NCBI GenBank assembly: GCA_963835625.1
Contig: CAWIGO010000002.1
Coordinates: 8,116 to 72,115 of the forward strand
Length of the DNA: 64,000 nt
Source: an uncultured Verrucomicrobiae bacterium
GTDB lineage: Bacteria; Verrucomicrobiota; Verrucomicrobiia; Limisphaerales; UBA11358
Reading direction: 5' to 3'
The position numbers were made by a program, and so were the translations under genes. The notes beneath the pieces were generated by a model, which ran no database searches, had not been told where the DNA came from, and saw only the letters and a list, made by a program, of their open reading frames with translations. Position 1 is the first letter of the stretch; each line of letters starts with the position of its first letter. Below, in pieces: positions 3,783 through 27,911 of the stretch.

Positions 3783-3810
3783 CTCAACCCTCAACCATGA
3801 ACTCTCAACC
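3783..3810. repeat. 7-bp-period tandem array (CTCAACC units)
   Basis: ctcaacc ctcaacc atgaact ctcaacc, read directly. Confidence 0.7.
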
Positions 3811-3814
3811 GACT

Positions 3815-3880
3815 TCGTTTCTGGTGCAGGTTAAAGAGATTGTGGATTTTGAGGAAGAACTGGCGGGGGCGACGAAATGA
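3815..3880 (+). repeat. Diverged third copy of the carB-N 3' terminus (encodes [21 protein letters not shown]-stop)
   Basis: Protein-level match to the carB end with the stop at the equivalent position. Confidence 0.8.
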
Positions 3881-7934: not shown

Positions 7935-8657
7935 TTACTTCATCGCCACATACACGCGATGCACATCGTCGTGATCGTCAAGGGCGTTGAGGAAGTCCAC
8001 GACTTGTTTGCGATTGGCTGCGCTGATTTCGGGGAAATTCTTGGCGATGTAACGAATTTCAGCGGCGATGACGTTCCAACCGGCGGCCTTCAACGCCTTG
8101 GAAACGTGGTCGAGGTCTTTGATCTCGGTCAAAAACCGCGCGCCCTTCTGTCCGGCGGGAACTTCGTCGGATTCAAGCGGTTCGATTTCCTGCGCACCAG
8201 CTTCAATGGCATCGCCTTCGGCGTCGCGGTTGGCGTCGGTGTGCGTGGCTTCGACGACCCCGAGATGATTGAAGAAAAATGCGACGCTGCCCGGCTGGCC
8301 GAGTGAGCCGGCCTTGAACAAATTGCGGATTTCCGGCGCAGTGCGGTTGCGACTATCGGTGAGACACTCAACAATGACCGGCACCTTGTGCGGCGCGAAC
8401 CCTTCGTAGGTGACCAATTCGTAATTGACCTTTTCCGTGTCGAGTCCGGCGCCCTTCCTGATGGCACGTTCGATGGTGTCGCGGTAAACGGAGGCTTTCT
8501 TGGCTTTTTCGACGGCGGCGAAGAGGCGCGGATTGAGGTCGGGATCAGGTCCGCCGAGTTTGGCCGCGACCATGATTTCGCGGGCCAGCTTGACGACCAT
8601 CTGGCCTTTTTTCTGCGCGTTGATTTCGCGTCCGGATTGTTTCCATTGTGCGCCCAT
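7935..8657 (-). CDS. YebC/PmpR family transcriptional regulator
   Basis: 240 aa. N-terminus MGAQWKQSGREINAQKKGQMVVKLAREI..AAKLGGPDPDLNPRL is typical of YebC. Confidence 0.9.
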   Translation of the reverse strand: MGAQWKQSGREINAQKKGQMVVKLAREIMVAAKLGGPDPDLNPRLFAAVEKAKKASVYRDTIERAIRKGAGLDTEKVNYELVTYEGFAPHKVPVIVECLTDSRNRTAPEIRNLFKAGSLGQPGSVAFFFNHLGVVEATHTDANRDAEGDAIEAGAQEIEPLESDEVPAGQKGARFLTEIKDLDHVSKALKAAGWNVIAAEIRYIAKNFPEISAANRKQVVDFLNALDDHDDVHRVYVAMK

Positions 8658-17883: not shown

Positions 17884-19290
17884 ATGTTTGAAACCGTAAC
17901 TGAATTAATGAAACCGATTGCAATTTTGCCCGCCTTGCTGGTCGCCATTGGCGTGCTGGGCCTGGCCGGTTGCCGGGGTATTCCAGCACCGGGCGAACGG
18001 CAGGCGCGCCATGATCTCGGCGCGATCACCGGCCAATATCGGCCCGGTCAGCACAAGCCGGAATTGCCGGTGCTGACGCCCGACGCCGGCCTCAGCAATT
18101 TCCTCGCTTACACGCTGCTCAATTCGCCGAACGTGGAGGCCACTTACGACGATTGGGCGGCATCCGTTGAGCGCATCACTGTGGAACGCTCGCTGCCTGA
18201 CCCGCAAATCACGTTTCAATCGGACATCGCGGACATCGTGATGACGGTAATGCCCGGTTTCATGCAGGAGTTTCCCGGTCCCGGCAAATTGCGGGCGCGT
18301 GCCGCCACCGCCACCGCCGAAAGCCGGGTCAAATACTTCGTCTTTGAAAGCGCCGCACTGCAAACCGCGTTTGATTTGAAACAGGCTTACTACGAACTTT
18401 ACTTTCTTGATGAACGGCTGCGCATCAATCGCGAAACACTTTCGTTGCTGAACAACCTGGAACGCATCGCGCGGGCACAGAATGAAGTCGGCAAGGGAAC
18501 CTTGCAGGATGTGCTGCGCGCCCAGATCGAGAGCGACCGTGTCCGCACCGATATTGCCAATCTCGAAGATTCACGTCGGCCGATGATGGCGTCGTTCAAG
18601 GCCGCGCTTGGTCTGGCGCACGACCAACCCGACCCGCCAGTGCCCGCGCGACTGGAAACGACTACAGCAAATCCCGATTCCGATGAATTGCTGCGCGTTG
18701 CGTTCGCCCGCAATCCACGGCTTAAGGCAATGGAAGCCGACGTGCGCGCGGCGGAGGCGGGCATCGCCATGGCCTACAAGGAAAGAGTGCCCGATTTCAG
18801 CCTCGGCTTGATGGCTGATGTCAAAGCGTCGCCAACGATGTTTCGTCCACTCGCGGGGATGACCTTGCCGATTTGGCGCGACAAAATCGCGGCGGAAATC
18901 GCACAGGCCAAGGCGAACGAACTGGCAGCACGGGCGCGCCTAAGCGCGGCGCAGATTGTACTGGCGGTGGACTTCGCAAAACAATCTTTCGCTTACCGTG
19001 AAATAGGCCGCAATCTTGATTTGCTTGAAAATCAGCTTATTCCCAAAGCGCGCCAGTCGCTTGAAATCGCGCGTGCCAGTTATCTCGCGGGCACGATTGA
19101 TTTCTTCAACCTGATGGACACGGAGCGGACGCTGTTGAACTTCGAGCTTTCGGAAGTCGAAGCCCGCACCCAGCGCGAGATTGTGCTCTCGAAGTTGTCG
19201 CTGCTAATCGCGGGCGAGTTGCCAATGGGGACGGCGCTGTTCCCTGAAAACAGAATGGGCCGGCCCGCTTCAACCAAAATTTCAAAATGA
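17884..19290 (+). CDS. TolC-family outer-membrane efflux lipoprotein (CusC/CzcC-like)
   Basis: Lipobox LAGC and two OEP repeats. First gene of the RND operon. Confidence 0.85.
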   Translation: MFETVTELMKPIAILPALLVAIGVLGLAGCRGIPAPGERQARHDLGAITGQYRPGQHKPELPVLTPDAGLSNFLAYTLLNSPNVEATYDDWAASVERITVERSLPDPQITFQSDIADIVMTVMPGFMQEFPGPGKLRARAATATAESRVKYFVFESAALQTAFDLKQAYYELYFLDERLRINRETLSLLNNLERIARAQNEVGKGTLQDVLRAQIESDRVRTDIANLEDSRRPMMASFKAALGLAHDQPDPPVPARLETTTANPDSDELLRVAFARNPRLKAMEADVRAAEAGIAMAYKERVPDFSLGLMADVKASPTMFRPLAGMTLPIWRDKIAAEIAQAKANELAARARLSAAQIVLAVDFAKQSFAYREIGRNLDLLENQLIPKARQSLEIARASYLAGTIDFFNLMDTERTLLNFELSEVEARTQREIVLSKLSLLIAGELPMGTALFPENRMGRPASTKISK

Positions 19291-21083
19291 GAAACGCCAT
19301 GAACTCAAAATCAAAAATCACCCTGCTCATCATTTTGCTGGCGGCAGCCGTCGGCATCGGCCTTTTCGCCGCCGGTTGTTCCAAGCCAACAGACAAGGCC
19401 GCTGCTGCGACGCAGACCAAAACGCTCTACACCTGCGGCATGCATCCGCAGGTTATCCAGGATCATCCGGGCAACTGCCCGATTTGCGGCATGAAGCTGA
19501 CGCCCATTCGTAAACAGGCCGTCAGCGGCGCCTCGACCGCAACCGGGGTGCACAAAATCAAATACTACAAGTCCACGATGATGCCGGGTGAAGTGCGGCA
19601 GACTCCAGGCAAGGACAGCATGGGCATGGACATGGTGCCGGTTTACGAAGACGAAGCATCGGCGGCAGAATCATCCGCCATCGAGATTGACCCGGTGACG
19701 ATGCAGAACATGGGCATTCGAACGGCGACTGTCACACGCGGGCCGTTGCGCCGGGCCATCCGCACAGTCGGCGTGATTGATTACGATGAGACGACGCTGG
19801 CGGACGTGACGACCAAGTTCAAAGGCTGGATTGAGAAGCTGTACGTGAACGCCACGGGCCAGTTGGTGATCGCGGCGATCCGCTGTTTGAGATTTATTCG
19901 CCCGAACTTTACAGCGCGCAAGTCGAATATCTGCATTGTGACTGATCCTGCAAATAAAGCCGGCGCGGGCAGCGATGCGCTCAAAGCCTCGGCGCTGACG
20001 AAGTTGAAATTCTTCGACATCTCCGACGAGCAAATCGCCGAGTTGGAACGAACCCGGCAAGCGCGCAAAACCTTGCGCATCCTGGCGCCGCAGGACGGAT
20101 TCGTGATCGAAAAAAACATCGTCGAAGGCCAGATGGTGGATGCCGGCATGAAGATTTACCGGCTGGCCGATTTCGGATTGGTCTGGGTGCAGGCGCAGAT
20201 TTACGAACAGGATTTGGCTTACCTCAAGCTCGGCCAGGAGGCGACAGTCACACTGTCCTATCTGCCCGACCGCGAATTCCGCGGGCGAGTAACCTACATT
20301 TATCCGAATGTGGACGAGAAAACGCGCACGGCGAAAGTGCGGATGGAGTTTCACAATCCCGGCTATTTCCTCAAGCCCGGCATGTTTGCAACAGTTCAAG
20401 TCACATCCGAGTTGGAACCTTCGGTGTTGCTCGTGCCGGATATGGCGGTGCTGCGCAGCGGCGAGAAAAACGACCGTCTTCGTCGCTCTGGACGGCGGCA
20501 AGTTCGAGCCGCGCACAGTCACGCTCGGCCCGCAGGCCGAGAACGACATGTATCAGGTGTTGAGCGGATTGAACGAAGGCGAGCGCATCGTCACGTCCGG
20601 GCAGTTCATGCTCGATTCGGAAAGCCAGCTGCGCGAGGCGATCCAGAAAATGCTGAAGCCAAACAAATCCGGCACTTCCGCGCCGGTGGGCCAGGACGAA
20701 CGCGACGGTTACAGGTTTAACCAATCAGGAGGCGACGTCCGAAGAAGCAGCTCCCGTGAAATACATCTGCCCGATGCCGGAGCATGTCTCCATCGAATAC
20801 GATCATCCCGGCAAATGTCCCGATTTGCGGCATGACGCTGGTGCCCGTGTCCGCAAGCGAACCTGCAAGCAAGCTGCAGCCCGGCGGGAAGATTCTTTAC
20901 TACACCTGCCCGATGCCGGAGCACAGCGACGTGCGTTCCGACAAACCGGGCAAATGCCCCAAGTGCGGCATGACACTCATTCCGGTGATGGAAGCGCCTC
21001 CGCAGCCGAGGTCCGCCTCGCAATCTCCCGTTGGTGATGAAACCATGCCCGAAGGGATGGTCATGCCTGAACCGCAGCATTAA
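19287..21083 (+). pseudogene. RND membrane-fusion protein (CusB/CzcB-like) with CxxC metal-binding domains, about 5 frameshifts
   Basis: The reading frame must switch near 19868, 19935, 20468, 20700-20750 and 20820 to keep the homologous sequence (DPLFEIYSPELYSAQVEYL; TVFVALDGGKFEPRTVTLG; YICPMPEH..GKCPICGM; YYTCPMPEH..GKCPKCGM). Confidence 0.75.
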
Positions 21084-21098
21084 GCGCAAAGGATTTTC

Positions 21099-24000
21099 AT
21101 GCTCAAAGGCATCATAGATTTTTCGCTGAAGAACAAGTTCATCGTTCTTCTCGGCACGATGGTGCTCGTGCTGGGCGGCGTTTACGCGGTGAAGAACATC
21201 CCGCTCGACGCCATCCCCGATCTCTCGGACGTGCAGGTCATCATTTACACCGAATGGCCGGGCCAGGCGCCACAAATCGTCCAGGACCAGGTCACCTATC
21301 CCATCACGACCAAGATGCTTTCCGTGCCGAAGGCAAAGGTCGTGCGTGGCTATTCGTTCTACGGCTTCTCGTTCGTGTATGTGATTTTCGAGGACGGCAC
21401 CGATCCATATTGGGCGCGCAGCCGCGTGCTCGAATATCTCAACGGCTTGAGCGGACGCCTGCCCAAAGGCGTTTCGCCCGCGCTCGGCCCGGACGCCACC
21501 GGCGTCGGCTGGGCGTTCATGTATTCGCTCAACTCCACCAATCGCGATCTCGCCGCAACTGCGCTCAATGCAGGATTGGTATCTGCGCTACCAACTTGCG
21601 TCCGTCGAAGGCGTGTCTGAAGTCGCATCCGTCGGCGGCTTCGTGAAGCAATACCAGGTGACGGTGGACCCGACGAAACTCCGTGCTTACAACCTGTCCA
21701 TTTCAGACGTGGCCATGGCCGTCAAGCGCAGCAACGGCGAGGTCGGCGGGCGCTCCATCGAATTGTCGGAAAAGGAATTCATCCTGCGCGTAAAGGGTTA
21801 CGTCCAAAATCTGGAGGATTTGCGGAAAGTCGCCGTGGGCGTCGGGAACAACGGCGTGCCCATCCTGCTGCGCGACGTGGCGAACATCCAGTTCGGACCT
21901 GACATGCGGCGTGGCATCGCCGAGTTGAACGGCGAAGGAGAAACCGTCGGTGGCATTGTTATCGTCCGTTACGGCGCGAATGCGCGGCAGGTAATCCTCG
22001 ACGTGAAGAAAAAACTCGACACGGCGATGAAGGGTTTGCCGCCGGACGTAAAGTACACCATTGCCTACGACCGCAGTGCGCTGATTGATCGCGCTGTCAA
22101 AACGCTCGAAGAAAAGCTCCTCGAGGAAAGCATCGTGGTGGCGCTGGTGTGTATCGCCTTCCTGATGCACCTGCGTAGCGCGTTTGTCGCCATCGTCATT
22201 CTGCCAATCGCCGTCTTGATTTCATTCCTCGTCATGTTTGGCCAGGGCATCAGTTCCAACATCATGTCGCTCGGCGGCATTGCCATTGCCATTGGCGCGA
22301 TGGTGGACGCGGTCATCATTATGATCGAAAACGCCCACAAACATCTCGAACATGATCAGGGCAAGAAAGCGCATTGGGACATCATCCGCGACGCGGCGGT
22401 GGAGGTCGGGCCGGCCCTGTTCTACTCATTGCTGGTCATCACTGTGTCGTTCATTCCCGTGTTCACGCTCCAGGCACAGGAAGGCCGTCTTTTCAAGCCG
22501 CTGGCGTTCACAAAGACGTATTCGATGGGCGCGGCCGCACTGCTCTCCATTACGCTCGCGCCAATTCTCATGGGCTTCTTCATTCGTGGCAAGATTCCGC
22601 CCGAAGAAAAGAATCCTATCAATCGCTTTCTCATCTGGCTCTATCATCCGGTGATTGATTTTGTCATCAAGTGGCGCTGGCCGGTCATCTTCACTGCCGC
22701 CGCGCTCATCGTCTGGGTGTTCCTGCCTTCGAACAAACTCGCAGCACGGCTGCTGCCCGATGGTAAAGCCAAGGAATGGGCGTTCAAGGTTGGGAAAATC
22801 TTCCCTTACCAGAACATCGGCTCCGAATTCATGCCGCCGCTTTACGAAGGTGATTTGCTCTACATGCCGACAACTTTCCCCGGCATCTCGCCCACCAAGG
22901 CGCGCGAAATCATCCAGACCACCGACCGCATCATCAAAACGTTTCCCGAAGTGCATCATGTCTTCGGCAAGATTGGTCGCGCGGAAACCGCCACCGATCC
23001 AGCGCCCTTCGACATGATTGAAACGACCATCATGCTGAAGCCTGAAGAAGAATGGCCGAAGGTGGACATCAAAGATGAGAACGGCAAAGTCATCGCGCAC
23101 CGGCGTCGGACGCCCGACGAATTGGTGGATGCCATGAACGCCGCGGTTCAAATCCCCGGTCTGAACAACGCCTGGACCATGCCGATCAAAACGCGAATCA
23201 ACATGCTCGCCACCGGCATCAAGACGCCCGTCGGCATCAAGGTCGCTGGACCAGATCTGGCCGAGTTGGAGCGAGTGGCTTCGGAAGTCGAAGCTGTGGT
23301 CAAGGGTGTGCCCGGCACGTTGAGCGCGTTTGCCGAGCGCACGATGGGTGGCAACTACATTCAGTTCACCATTAACCGCGACGCCATCGCCCGTTACGGC
23401 CTGACCGTCGGCGACGTTCAGGACGTGCTGGAAGTTGCGTTGGGCGGAATGCCGCTGACGACGACGGTCGAAGGCTTGGAGCGGTATGACGTGAACCTTC
23501 GTTACAGCCGTGATTTCCGCGAAAACCTCGGCGCGTTGCGCGACATTGTTGTGCCCACTCCGACCGGAGCGCAAGTGCCGCTCGGACAGTTGGCGAAAAT
23601 TGAAACCGTCCACGCCCCAATGGGCATTAAGAGCGAAGCCGCCATACCCAATGCCTGGATTTACGTGGACGTAAAGGGCATTGACGTTGGTACCTACGTG
23701 CAAATGGCCATGCGCGCTGTCAACGATGCTGTCGCCAGTGGCACCATCAAGCTGCCTAGCGGCTACAACATCTTCTGGAGCGGACAATACGAATACATGA
23801 TGCGCGCCAAGCAGCGGTTGATGATGGTCGTGCCGCTCACGCTGTTCATCATTATCTTGATCGTTTACCTGAACACCCGGTCATCCGTTGCCACTGCCAT
23901 CATCATGCTGTCGGTGCCGCTGGCGCTGGTCGGCTCGTTCTGGATGCTCTACCTCTACGGCTACAATTTGAGCGTGGCGGTGTGGATCGGGTTGATTGCG

Positions 24001-24366
24001 CTGGCCGGCGTGAGCGCGGAAACCGGCGTGGTAATGCTGCTGTATCTCAACCTGGCCCACGACAAATGGAAACGCGAAGGCCGGTTGCGCACTCTCGCTG
24101 ACCTGCGTGATGCGATTTACCACGGCGCAGTCAAGCGCGTCCGGCCCAAGGCCATGACAGCGTGCGTCATCGTTGCCGGCCTCGCACCAATTCTCTGGAG
24201 CCACGGCGCCGGCGCGGACGTGATGAAACGCATCGCCACGCCGATGGTGGGCGGTGTTATCACCTCGGTAATCATGGAACTGGTCGTTTACCCGGCGGTT
24301 TTCTACCTGTGGCGCTCGCGCGAAATCAAGCAAGGGGGAGAGTTGATAAATTCGGCTGGCAGGTGA
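21099..24366 (+). pseudogene. CusA/CzcA-family heavy-metal RND permease, one frameshift near 21555-21570
   Basis: ORF 21099..21620 (N-terminus) and ORF 21568..24366 join as ...[18 protein letters not shown]. Confidence 0.8.
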
Positions 24367-24376
24367 ATTGAAGAGA

Positions 24377-25411
24377 TTATTTTGATTTACCACGCTTTTG
24401 TTTCGCGCCGAGTTTTTTTTCCAATTCCGCGACGCGCTTGAGCAGTTCTGGCAGGAGTTGAATGGCAATCATCTGGCGCTTGGTTTGTTTGTCCGGCTGC
24501 GCGGGAATTCCCATCCATTTCCCGCCGTCGGGAATGTCACTCATCACGCCGGCCTTCGCTACGACCGTGACTTGATTGCCGATTTTCAGATGCCCGGCAA
24601 TGCCGACTTGTCCGGCAATCACGACATAGTTGCCCAGCTTGGAACTGCCCGCAATGCCGGCTTGCGCGACGAGCAGACAGCCTTCGCCGATTTCAACGTT
24701 GTGCGCGACTTGCACGAGGTTATCGATCTTCGTGCCTTTGCCGATGACCGTCGAGCCGAGCGCGCCGCGGTCAATCGTCACGCCCGCGCCGATTTCCACG
24801 TCGTCGCCGATGAGCACATTTCCAATCTGCGGCACTTTTCGGTGAATGTCCCCGTCTTGCACATAACCAAAACCGTCCGCACCAACCACCGTGTTGGCAT
24901 GAATGCGGACGCGGTGGCCGATTTCCGTGCGCGGATAAATAGTCACGTTGGGAAACAAATTGACGTCATCACCGAGTTTGGAATCATCGCCGACAAAGCT
25001 GCCGGCTTGCAAAACCGTTCGCGCGCCCATGCGCACGCGCTCGCCAACGACGCAGTGCGGTCCGATGTGTGCGCTCGCGTCAATTTGCGCGCTTGATGCG
25101 ATGACGGCGGTCGGATGAATGCCCGCGGCGAATTTTTGTTCCGGGAAAAACAATGCAAGCGCCTTGGCAAATGCAATGCGCGCATTGGGCACACGGATTA
25201 AAATTTTATGCGCGGATTTGAAACGGTTGTCCGCGATAATTGCGGTCGCAGCGCTTTGTTCGGCACGGGCAAAATAGGCCTCATTTTCAGCGAACGTGAG
25301 GTCGCCGGCCTGCGCATGTTCTATGGGCGCAAAGTTTTTCAGGATGGCGGTATTATCTCCAACCGCCTTGCCACCAACGTGTTTTGCAACTTCTAATACT
25401 GTAAATGGCAT
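24377..25411 (-). CDS. lpxD: UDP-3-O-acylglucosamine N-acyltransferase
   Basis: 344 aa, N-terminal LpxD domain plus hexapeptide left-handed beta-helix repeats. Confidence 0.9.
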
Positions 25412-25497: not shown

Positions 25498-26643
25498 ATG
25501 GCGAGGACCTTTCGTGTCGGCCTAATCGGCTACCGCTTCATGGGCAGGGCGCACTCGAATGCCTGGCGGCAGGCGCCACGCTTCTTCAATCTCAAGGCGA
25601 ATGTCGAGATGCACACCCTATGCGGGCGCGATGTGGTAGGGGTGCAAATGGCGCGCGCACAACTCGGCTGGCAGAACACCACGACGGATTGGCGCGAAAT
25701 TGTCGAATCGCCGCTGATTGACATCGTGGACATCGTCACGCCGACGAATTTTCACGCGGAAATGGCGATTGCCGCGGTGAAAAACGGCAAGCACGTTTTG
25801 TGCGAAAAGCCGCTGGCGCTGAATCTCAAACAGGCCGAGGCGATGTTCGCCGCCGCGCACAAGGCGAAGGTCGTCCACATGGTCTGCCACAATTACCGGC
25901 GCATTCCGGCAATCGCGCTGGCGAAGCGGATGATTGGCGAAGGCGCGCTGGGCCGGATTTTTCATTTTCACGCGCGTTACGCGCAGGACCGGCTGGCCGA
26001 CCCGGAATTTCCGCTGGACTGGCGTTTGCAAAAGGAGACCAGCGGCTGTGGCGTCCACAGCGACATCAATTCGCACGTCATTGATTTGGGGCGTTACCTC
26101 GTCGGCGAATTCAAGGAGGTCTGCGGGTTGCTGAACACGTTTATACCGGAACGTCCGCTGGCGGATGCGCTGGCCAAAGGCGCGCGCAGGATGGGCAAGG
26201 TCACCGTGCCGGACTCCGCAATGTTCATCGGGCGGATGGAAAATGGCGTGCTGGCGAACGTGGAAGCCACGCGCTACGCGCTCGGCCGCAAGAACCACAT
26301 CGCTGTCGAAATCAACGGAAGCAAAGGCTCGATCTATTTTGATTTTGAGGACATGAACCGGCTGAAATTTTACAATGGCGACGACCCGAAAGACCGGCGG
26401 GGTTTCCGCGACATTCTCGTGACGGAGCGCGACGGCGTGCAACCGTATGTCGGCCATTGGTGGCCGCCGGGACACGGCATCGGCTACGAACACACGTTCA
26501 TTCATGTGGTCGCCGATTTTGTGAACGCCTGCGTCGAGAGGAAACCGGCGCAACCAACTTTTGAGGATGGCTTGAAAAATCAGCGCGTGCTCGCCGCCGT
26601 CGAGGAATCGGCCAAAACCGGCAAATGGGTGAAATTGAAATGA
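25498..26643 (+). CDS. Gfo/Idh/MocA family oxidoreductase
   Basis: N-terminal Rossmann VGLIGYRFMGRAH and an EKP motif (VLCEKPLA). Confidence 0.85.
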   Translation: MARTFRVGLIGYRFMGRAHSNAWRQAPRFFNLKANVEMHTLCGRDVVGVQMARAQLGWQNTTTDWREIVESPLIDIVDIVTPTNFHAEMAIAAVKNGKHVLCEKPLALNLKQAEAMFAAAHKAKVVHMVCHNYRRIPAIALAKRMIGEGALGRIFHFHARYAQDRLADPEFPLDWRLQKETSGCGVHSDINSHVIDLGRYLVGEFKEVCGLLNTFIPERPLADALAKGARRMGKVTVPDSAMFIGRMENGVLANVEATRYALGRKNHIAVEINGSKGSIYFDFEDMNRLKFYNGDDPKDRRGFRDILVTERDGVQPYVGHWWPPGHGIGYEHTFIHVVADFVNACVERKPAQPTFEDGLKNQRVLAAVEESAKTGKWVKLK

Positions 26644-26698
26644 TTTGACCCGCCCGTCCGCGCGCCGGTGCGCATTGAAAAAGGCCGCTGGTCATTGT

Positions 26699-26735
26699 GC
26701 CCGCGTGGCGAAATTGGCAGACACGCCAGATTCAG
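26699..26735 (+). pseudogene. tRNA-Leu 5' half remnant (acceptor, D arm and anticodon stem up to CAG)
   Basis: GCCCGCGTGGCGAAATTGGCAGACACGCCAGATTCAG aligns to the first 37 nt of the intact tRNA at 27232, then the similarity stops. Confidence 0.85.
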
Positions 26736-26891
26736 TTTTTTACGTTCACCATTTTTAGAGGACATCTCCGCGTTTCAATGAGAGCGATAATGGCGGGGAT
26801 TTTGCAAAGTTATAAATAATTCTATACAGGCTGAAGAATGTGTTATAAACGGCATTAACCCATTAAAAACCATCGTGAATGAAACCAAAAT

Positions 26892-27080
26892 ATGAAAGCC
26901 ACAATCAAAATCGAAGTGGAAGTGCCTGATGGGACAATGGATCACCAATTAACCGTGGACAGGATTTTAACCACCAGAGATATTTTCTCTGAGGTAAAGC
27001 GTGATATGGAATCCTATTTTAGAACCAGTGGTGACTGGCAAACCATTGCGAGGCTCAAATTTTCCATGATGCCGGAATAA
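26892..27080 (+). CDS. Hypothetical 62-aa protein (cassette cargo)
   Basis: The only ORF in the AT-rich insert. No clear SD and no motif. Confidence 0.3.
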   Translation: MKATIKIEVEVPDGTMDHQLTVDRILTTRDIFSEVKRDMESYFRTSGDWQTIARLKFSMMPE

Positions 27081-27092
27081 TGGTGTCTGATC

Positions 27093-27176
27093 TGTTTGAG
27101 GCGGCGGCTCAGCCGGTGCTCAAGGCGGTGTGTCGAAGAATCGTCCAAAGCCGGCAAGTGGGTGAAATTGGAATGA
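27093..27176 (+). pseudogene. Diverged, frameshifted copy of the oxidoreductase 3' terminus
   Basis: Encodes LFEAAAQPVLKAV / (1-nt shift) / VEESSKAGKWVKLE-stop, against TFEDGLKNQRVLAAVEESAKTGKWVKLK-stop in the gene. Confidence 0.8.
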
Positions 27177-27231
27177 TTTGGCTTGCCCGTTCATGCGGTG
27201 GCGCGTATTGAAAGAAGCTGCCGGTCATCGT

Positions 27232-27316
27232 GCCCGCGTGGCGGAATTGGCAGACGCGCTAGATTCAGGTTCTAGTGGGTAACACCATACAGGTTCAAAT
27301 CCTGTCGCGGGCACCA
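27232..27316 (+). tRNA. tRNA-Leu (anticodon CAG), type II with a long variable arm and encoded CCA
   Basis: Manual fold: acceptor GCCCGCG/CGCGGGC, anticodon stem CTAGA/TCTAG with loop TTCAGGT, T arm ACAGG-TTCAAAT-CCTGT. Confidence 0.9.
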
Positions 27317-27464
27317 TATTGAAACTTGATGGATTCTCGAGGAGGAGCGACCCTGCATTCCGGCGTTGGGATGGACGGCGTTTGGCCTTTCAGGCTGGTC
27401 ATTGAATTTGCCGGGAAATCAGTTCGACAGGAAAAACAATGTGAGTTAATCTTGTCCTCAACAC

Positions 27465-27911
27465 ATGAAGATTCTGTTCCTAAATGGTCCGAATTTGAAT
27501 TTGCTCGGAGGACGTGAACCGGATGTATATGGCCATGCGACTTTGGCTGACATCGAGACCGAGGTCCGTGAACACGCCAAAGGCTTGGGTGTGGAAGTTG
27601 ACTTTCGACAGTCCAACTTGGAGGGTGAATTAGTTGGTTGGATTCAAGAAGCAAAAGGGAATTTCGATGTGATCGTTCTCAATGCCGCTGCCTATACCCA
27701 TACTAGCGTCGCGCTTCGGGATGCAATTGCTGCGGTTGGGGTACCAACAATTGAAATCCATCTTTCAAATATCCATGCAAGGGAAAAATTTAGGCAAAAG
27801 TCGCTGATAGCTCCAGTTTGCTGTGGTCAGATTACAGGTTTTGGGCAACAGTCTTACATTCTGGCATTAGAAGCGTCAGTTAGCGTTAAAGTATATAAAA
27901 AATGCCATTAA
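27465..27911 (+). CDS. aroQ: Type II 3-dehydroquinate dehydratase
   Basis: [21 protein letters not shown] and [12 protein letters not shown] motifs. Confidence 0.92.

Follow-up and report, generated by a model that had tools for sequence, protein, structure and literature searches.

A probable relic of a reverse-polarity integrative element at the tRNA-Leu(CAG) gene of an uncultured Verrucomicrobiae bacterium

We analyzed a 64-kb stretch of DNA (the window; positions 8,116 to 72,115 of contig CAWIGO010000002.1, from an uncultured Verrucomicrobiae bacterium) in which an intact tRNA-Leu(CAG) gene is preceded by a partial copy of itself and by a small insert whose only cargo gene is a 62-codon open reading frame, ORF62. 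We consider it likely that this unit is an old, immobilized relic of a tyrosine-integrase element that had targeted, in reversed polarity, the anticodon loop of this tRNA. The part of the tRNA gene that was replaced is the 5' half rather than the 3' half, as a preliminary description of the window had already stated.

The evidence that carries this reading is a stretch of approximately 85 nucleotides (nt) directly after the displaced tRNA fragment (26736–26820, plus strand, as are all features below unless noted). This stretch, the element half of the left attachment site (attL), aligned with the left arms of an element family, family 1, at 20 or more left ends, including those of the related loci L115 and L070 (related loci are given L numbers throughout). 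Among the metagenome contigs listed, family 1 was the commonest left-arm family at tRNA-Leu(CAG) 5' fragments, and full members of family 1 and of its sister families carry tyrosine integrases (PF00589). The preliminary description had correctly observed that the element side carries sequence of a neighboring gene and, regarding the arrangement as atypical of classical integrases, had attributed it to homology. The analysis did not support that attribution: since the adjoining 85 nt are the left arm of a family with integrases, whose member L115 also has arm repeats and a repeat of tRNA nt 1–40, the junction is, on its sequence, best read as the product of site-specific integration with reversed polarity and not of plain homology.

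The duplicated segment and its junctions

The window contains an ungapped direct repeat (26599–26738 and 27132–27271) identical at 116 of 140 positions (E 3e-37 in a search space of 64 kb), which reaches leftward to approximately 26578 and 27111 when one gap is allowed. No third copy was found in the window. The duplication of a gene end, a spacer and a tRNA 5' half was thus as previously described, with the exception of its left edges, which had been placed at 26558 and 27093. The secure edges lie about 20 nt further in, at approximately 26578 and 27111 (26599 and 27132 without gaps), and the TTTGAGG at 27096 was also present in relatives whose ORF62 lacks the pseudo-oxidoreductase that follows it here.

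Copy A (26578–26738) starts in the true 3' end of an intact gene for a 381-residue oxidoreductase of the GFO/IDH/MocA type (25498–26643, assigned by its open reading frame and Pfam), with which it is contiguous and whose last ~65 nt form its coding part. It continues through a 55-nt spacer (26644–26698), a relic of the native tRNA-Leu promoter region, into the displaced tRNA 5' fragment, the host half of attL (26699–26735), which matches nt 1–37 of the intact gene with three mismatches. Copy B begins with the dead, frameshifted 3' end of an oxidoreductase (27111–27176, with the old stop codon at 27174–27176), followed by the corresponding spacer (27177–27231) and the 5' part of the complete tRNA-Leu(CAG) (27232–27316). 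This gene is the right attachment site (attR), with nt 1–37 from copy B and the element side and nt 38–85 native. ARAGORN and Rfam (56 bits) each called the intact tRNA alone; the homologous displaced fragment was called by neither program, and Rfam found no RNA gene other than the tRNA between 26400 and 27500. A group I intron or a split tRNA interrupted in the anticodon loop was considered and rejected, as Rfam finds tRNA alone and a complete gene lies downstream.

The AT-rich cargo between the copies, with its 62-codon open reading frame, was also as previously described and measures 357 nt (36–42% GC). After the left-arm remnant there is an AT-rich leader (26821–26891, 36–40% GC) that is conserved in L082 and L190, followed by ORF62 (26892–27080) and its 3' flank (27081–27110). 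The flank is common to L209 and L210 through TGTTTGRGGCG and then diverges, and it may hold an illegitimate junction with captured host DNA.

The break in tRNA identity had been placed exactly after the anticodon. The break does lie inside the anticodon loop; the stop directly after CAG is due to a later G-to-T change, and in less decayed relatives identity continues through CAGGT(T), tRNA nt 38–40. Across the window, L005, L013, L070 and L115 identity breaks at tRNA nt 37–42. In the window the loop now reads TTCAGTT at attL versus TTCAGGT at attR, a mismatch in the presumed overlap. A side observation concerns the same sequence: a hairpin within the tRNA fragment is followed by TTTTTT (26714–26741), through substitutions common to the window, L082 and L190. 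It was listed as terminator-like by a scan and might now serve to terminate transcription of the oxidoreductase gene.

Conservation in each copy is confined to the parts in use: copy A has lost the promoter and base pairing, and copy B has lost the oxidoreductase frame. Two of the mismatches in the copy A fragment disrupt base pairs, one in the D stem and the other in the anticodon stem, where the partner base belongs to the present 3' half. In copy B, the oxidoreductase end carries the +1 frameshift previously noted in the window, and in L082 it carries an in-frame TAG. Genomes with an empty site conserve ATTTGACTTGCCC-N17-TATTGAAA directly past the oxidoreductase stop codon, and TTGCCC-N17-TATTGA is kept in the empty sites and in copy B (window, L082, L086 and L190), with isolated substitutions around the boxes. 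In copy B of the window the two boxes are at 27183–27188 and 27206–27211, separated by a spacer of 17 nt. The boxes of copy A are mutated differently, with a -35-like CCGCCC (26650–26655) and a -10-like CATTGA (26673–26678) in the window, and CTGCCC and ATGTAG in L082. Replacement of the 5' half leaves the native promoter detached from the 3' half, so the element must bring a promoter or upstream flank of its own. Based on its conservation, we regard the copy B block as a putative working promoter supplied to the restored tRNA by the element side.

The best match of the pseudo-oxidoreductase is the corresponding gene of its own clade (83%), so a foreign donor for copy B, which we considered, is not needed. 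The 83% identity of copies A and B is accounted for by reciprocal decay of two sequences that were probably identical at first.

ORF62 had 20 homologues, all of 62 residues and 68–90% identical, and those with readable context were all located after lpxD and the oxidoreductase gene. The ratio of non-synonymous to synonymous substitution rates (dN/dS) was 0.21–0.80, and the AlphaFold model, with a mean predicted local distance difference test score (pLDDT) of 81.6, has a strand-strand-helix-strand fold. ORF62 had no Pfam match, Foldseek against the PDB returned nothing below E 0.1, and a profile search of 1.84 billion representatives returned only its own cluster and repeat-protein noise. The fixed length, the dN/dS values and the confident model make it probable that ORF62 is a genuine gene, with weak to moderate constraint acting on it. 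A 15-nt stretch within it (26958–26972) is 93% complementary to the T arm of the tRNA (27292–27306; 17 of 20 when extended). About 0.2 chance matches of this kind are expected in 3 kb, and the complementarity is probably a coincidence.

Relatives of the unit and the tRNA-Leu(CAG) hotspot

The clearest view of an intact family-1 element was provided by L115, in which a complete element of 8.4 kb is bounded by a perfect 40-nt repeat that corresponds exactly to tRNA nt 1–40. Paired TGTCGCAA arm repeats are located ~130 nt inside its left end and 50–70 nt upstream of the tRNA, that is, on both arms (3810–3829 and 11960–11979 of L115). Its integrase gene (445 residues, PF00589) lies directly upstream of the restored tRNA, beginning 50 nt away and oriented in the opposite direction from the tRNA, and its cargo includes a small helix-turn-helix gene, a DUF3854 protein and others. 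L097 and L188 have an L115-like layout with different arm repeats, and their integrases are only 24–28% identical to each other and to that of L115.

An unbiased Hamming scan of 80 related genome loci identified further tRNA 5' fragments in L005, L013 and L070. These end at tRNA nt 40–42 and are each followed by different cargo. No integrase was found within reach of the downstream genes of L005 and L070 (a tautomerase, a pirin, a DDE transposase and an MsrA-like gene). Anticodon-loop-type 3' fragments were not found in any of 210 loci. In at least 120 metagenome contigs the 5' half was joined to one of approximately nine recurring left-arm families; the pattern used to identify them (the tRNA 5' half with a base other than G at nt 43) forces the break to fall between nt 37 and 43. 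Among the metagenome contigs listed, many of the 5' fragments had in front of them an integrase, either whole or reduced to its N-terminal part, pointing to tandem accretion. In L190, a newer element has in turn inserted into the copy B tRNA of a locus of the window type and split it.

Elements without an integrase were also present at this tRNA. In L013, a 2.4-kb cargo that lacks an integrase lies between the copies of a perfect repeat of 100 nt, made up of 60 nt of promoter flank and 40 nt of tRNA, and we regard L013 as a young analogue of the window unit. L136 (4114–6186) has a 2-kb element without an integrase, encoding a sigma factor of the extracytoplasmic function type, between a 5' fragment and the intact tRNA. 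Each of these two tRNA sequences has the same GTATACAAAG arm repeats on its upstream side, and this element is a candidate for mobilization in trans by its neighbor. Two viral contigs from other hosts (L087 and L088) carry a tRNA-Leu(CAG) 5' half that ends in the loop and lies next to an integrase; in L088 the 5' half is located behind a good host promoter. Together, these data show that tRNA-Leu(CAG) is a hotspot at which elements of many families occur, some stacked in tandem, with no fewer than three distant lineages of integrase, and that the 5'-replacing mode, common at this tRNA in peat-soil Verrucomicrobia, is the rule there in an uncultured soil clade. One event of classical polarity was seen: in L063 (7210–8679), a 23-nt 3'-end fragment (nt 63–85) lies 1.36 kb downstream of the intact tRNA, before aroQ.

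Comparison of the locus among relatives, as the preliminary description had proposed, revealed both occupied and empty sites. The order of parts seen in the window was found column for column in L081–L085 (ORF62 79% identical), L086 (69%) and L190 (77%), and this layout was shared by at least seven other related Limisphaerales assemblies from different samples. The shared layout of these assemblies, which diverge from one another in an orderly manner, excludes an assembly artefact as its source and places the event before the split of the lineages. In L056 and L076 the site is empty, with the oxidoreductase gene followed by ~70 nt, the tRNA and aroQ-accB-accC, and family-1 left-arm sequence was not present at either locus. 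Empty sites were also found in L020, L027 and L050, and elsewhere the site was filled by diverse cargo.

Two other arrangements were observed in relatives. In L209 (2751–2912) and L210 (1671–1800), which represent lineages further removed, ~130 nt common to the two loci come after ORF62, with sugar-use genes (an SSF transporter and a melibiase) beyond. They have no pseudo-oxidoreductase or tRNA there, which could reflect a later deletion or the original context of the cargo. In L001, L003, L005, L007, L012, L013 and L060, a conserved gene for a 152-residue membrane protein and a further ~1 kb are located between the oxidoreductase gene and the tRNA. These loci belong to the lineage whose oxidoreductase is closest to that of the window, and no recognizable tRNA fragment comes after the oxidoreductase gene.

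The window unit itself is a fossil that is not mobilizable. No integrase was identified in the 64-kb window by a motif scan or by tblastn with five integrases, and none belonging to the insert was found in the window or in seven related assemblies; it is in the full-length relatives that an integrase adjoins the site. The TGTCGCAA arm repeat was absent from 26400–27400. These absences, the mismatched attL loop and lineage-specific deletions, such as a 43-nt deletion in the spacer and tRNA fragment common to L086 and L210, are the basis for this conclusion.

With regard to the wider gene context, lpxD (24377–25411, minus strand; Pfam and open reading frame) lies to the left of the oxidoreductase gene, and this synteny was conserved in 80 relatives. 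To the right of the tRNA the gene order is aroQ (27465–27911, Pfam DHquinase_II), the native downstream neighbor, followed by accB and accC. The oxidoreductase gene is a mosaic. Approximately 825 bp (25704–26526) are 95–99% identical to the lineage of L001, L003 and L006, and the L082 lineage is the match instead for lpxD, for the first 200 nt of the oxidoreductase gene and for everything from its last 100 nt onward. The right breakpoint (26527–26539) is only ~40 nt to the left of the duplication, and the mosaic could be either an import by homologous recombination or a strain chimera of the assembly. Further left, a cusB-like gene (open reading frames 19287–20720 and 20308–20835, split in 20300–20720) and a cusA-like gene (21099–21620 and 21568–24366, split in 21568–21620) are apparently divided by frameshifts. 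Relatives have a single ACR_tran gene of 1071 residues, and the splits in the window represent either pseudogenes or indel errors. In one relative only (L086, 959–3600), a HaeII-type restriction-modification module and a Vsr endonuclease gene lie between cusA and lpxD.

Proposed origin and competing explanations

From the two junctions, the family relationship, the integrases of the relatives, the conservation across species and the reciprocal decay, we infer a crossover chemistry, an aberrant-excision step and an order of events as follows. The attachment site of the element (attP) would have carried a promoter and tRNA nt 1–40. A crossover within the 7-nt anticodon loop would strand the host promoter and 5' half as a dead fragment (attL, copy A) and would fuse the 5' copy of the element to the native 3' half, producing a working gene (attR, copy B). 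The element would have shrunk to 85 nt of left arm and ORF62. Its right end in the window would be the host lineage's own oxidoreductase end, tRNA promoter and tRNA 5' half, replacing the usual integrase-plus-arm module. The most likely source of this right end is an aberrant excision like that which gives lambda dgal, or an illegitimate join. A single join would have connected a point in the host flank to the left of attL with a point just past the first cargo gene, and its product would have contained host flank, promoter, 5' fragment, left arm and ORF62, with the right-end integrase lost. As the integrase is at the right end of full elements, capture of the left host flank predicts its loss, as seen. 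The unit would then have been re-inserted at an intact tRNA, or an equivalent direct exchange with an empty chromosome would have taken place, with the same final order of parts. Either an integrase acting in trans or homologous recombination through the captured segment could have performed this final step, and the products would be identical.

Several observations weigh against a relic of an integrase-bearing element. No full-length element carrying ORF62 was found, and every ORF62 homologue with readable context is at the same locus. The insert has no integrase, arm site or excision product, and the role of an integrase is assigned by homology to the relatives. The metagenome contigs are informative on the abundance and families of such elements and not on the position of the break, which their search pattern forces. 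A simple sigma-70 consensus scan did not call the tRNA promoter, whose assignment is by conservation only. As the match between the pseudo-oxidoreductase and its own clade's gene is only 83%, a foreign donor is conceivable. The sequence that comes after ORF62 is a different one in L209 and L210, a change that could have gone in either direction.

Homologous recombination of the Campbell type, in which a small circle with ORF62 and a captured host segment of ~160 nt enters by a crossover anywhere in the homology and needs no integrase, would give a product topologically identical to the observed layout. It would also suit an insert without an integrase or arm site, a duplicate that looks self-derived (so that the homology was perhaps perfect at the time) and the 100-nt perfect repeat in L013. 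We nevertheless think it unlikely. It explains neither the anticodon loop as the right edge of the homology nor the adjoining 85-nt left arm of an integrase element, and 100–160 nt is a short substrate for recombination of the RecA type. A site-specific event must have come before it, which limits this model to the last re-insertion step; any exchange point between copies A and B has been hidden by the later decay of both. Without any mobile element, slippage or unequal exchange could have produced a local tandem duplication, with ORF62 inserted later in an unrelated event; this would likewise account for copies that are direct, close and apparently self-derived. We give it very little credence, as the sequence between the copies begins with an element left arm exactly at the loop and the break is found again in L005, L013, L070 and L115, where the cargo is unrelated.

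The integrase-less elements with both sites at the same tRNA (L136, at 2 kb and with intact arm repeats, and L013), and the continued use of the site in L190, might suggest that the window unit is a still-mobile, non-autonomous cassette resembling a cis-mobilizable element (CIME) and moved in trans by the integrases of full elements. This appears very unlikely to us given the mismatch between TTCAGTT and TTCAGGT in the overlap, the absence of arm repeats and the lineage-specific deletions in the tRNA fragment and left arm (L086, L210). The insert moreover occupies a single, fixed locus in the different species, consistent with vertical descent. An assembly artefact, or a chimeric join of two strains at a conserved tRNA, could be suspected from the 825-bp stretch of another lineage in the oxidoreductase gene and the apparent cusB and cusA frameshifts. 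It is scarcely credible in view of the identical layout, with orderly divergence, in at least seven independent assemblies and samples. The drop in GC content across the tRNA, from the oxidoreductase gene to aroQ, is the same in empty-site genomes, which likewise led us to reject a large foreign flank or chimera at the tRNA.

Returning to the relic of a reverse-polarity element, a broader speculation can be built around it. In this Limisphaerales group, tRNA-Leu(CAG) might be a dedicated capture site of reversed polarity, with unrelated integrase lineages stacking upstream of the gene. One-gene units without an integrase (the ORF62 unit, L013 and L136), equipped with a host-type promoter and 5' half, might be moved in trans like cassettes, and ORF62 might have been domesticated for a host function. 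We consider this proposal as a whole unlikely.

Comparison with known systems

The window provides a comparative example of an island that replaces the promoter and 5' half of a tRNA gene, a rare mode, and the window copy is a case of a single orphan gene retained after the loss of mobile machinery. The wider reverse-polarity hotspot in peat Limisphaerales is the more interesting result. It is of practical concern as well, since island-finding software that searches only for 3' tRNA fragments on the downstream side of the gene would overlook every one of these elements.

Integrative elements that target tRNA genes, including those that use the anticodon-loop sublocation, were described by Williams (2002, Nucleic Acids Res 30:866), as cited in a passage of PMC1635311. 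As in the anticodon-loop elements with tyrosine integrases outlined there, a direct repeat of part of the tRNA flanks the insert in the window, the break is in the loop and the gene is restored intact, and the full-length relatives have a PF00589 integrase by the site and arm repeats on both arms. Unlike in that outline, the window repeat comprises the 5' part and promoter instead of the 3' part, the window copy has no integrase or arm sites, and the repeat on the element side includes 65 nt of a neighboring gene. Elements in the reverse orientation, which use the 5'-distal part of the tRNA, are considerably less frequent than those using the 3' part, with archaeal cases, according to the relevant passage of PMC6563490 (citing Zhao and Williams 2002, J Bacteriol 184:859). 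The window agrees with these in two respects: the 5' portion of the tRNA was replaced, and its displaced remnant is upstream of the intact gene. In contrast to the cases described in that passage, the reversed mode is here the dominant one at a single tRNA throughout a bacterial clade, where integrases of several lineages occur and elements form tandem arrays.

Two further systems can be compared with the unit. Lambda dgal is an aberrant excision product that contains host DNA, a specialized transducing genome. Similar to it, the window unit carries host DNA adjoining attL and has lost genes of the far end (here the integrase), and re-insertion would have duplicated the host flank. The two differ in that there is no phage or packaging evidence for the window unit, for which this step is inferred from structure. 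Streptococcal integrative and conjugative elements show both cis-mobilizable elements and tandem accretion at tRNA sites. As at those sites, remnants that are flanked by attachment sites and lack an integrase lie beside or behind full elements (L136, L188, L190 and the integrase remnants), whereas the attachment sites of the window unit, unlike those of streptococcal cis-mobilizable elements, have decayed and the unit is fixed across species. In this company the window feature is a degenerate member of a known but rare kind of element.

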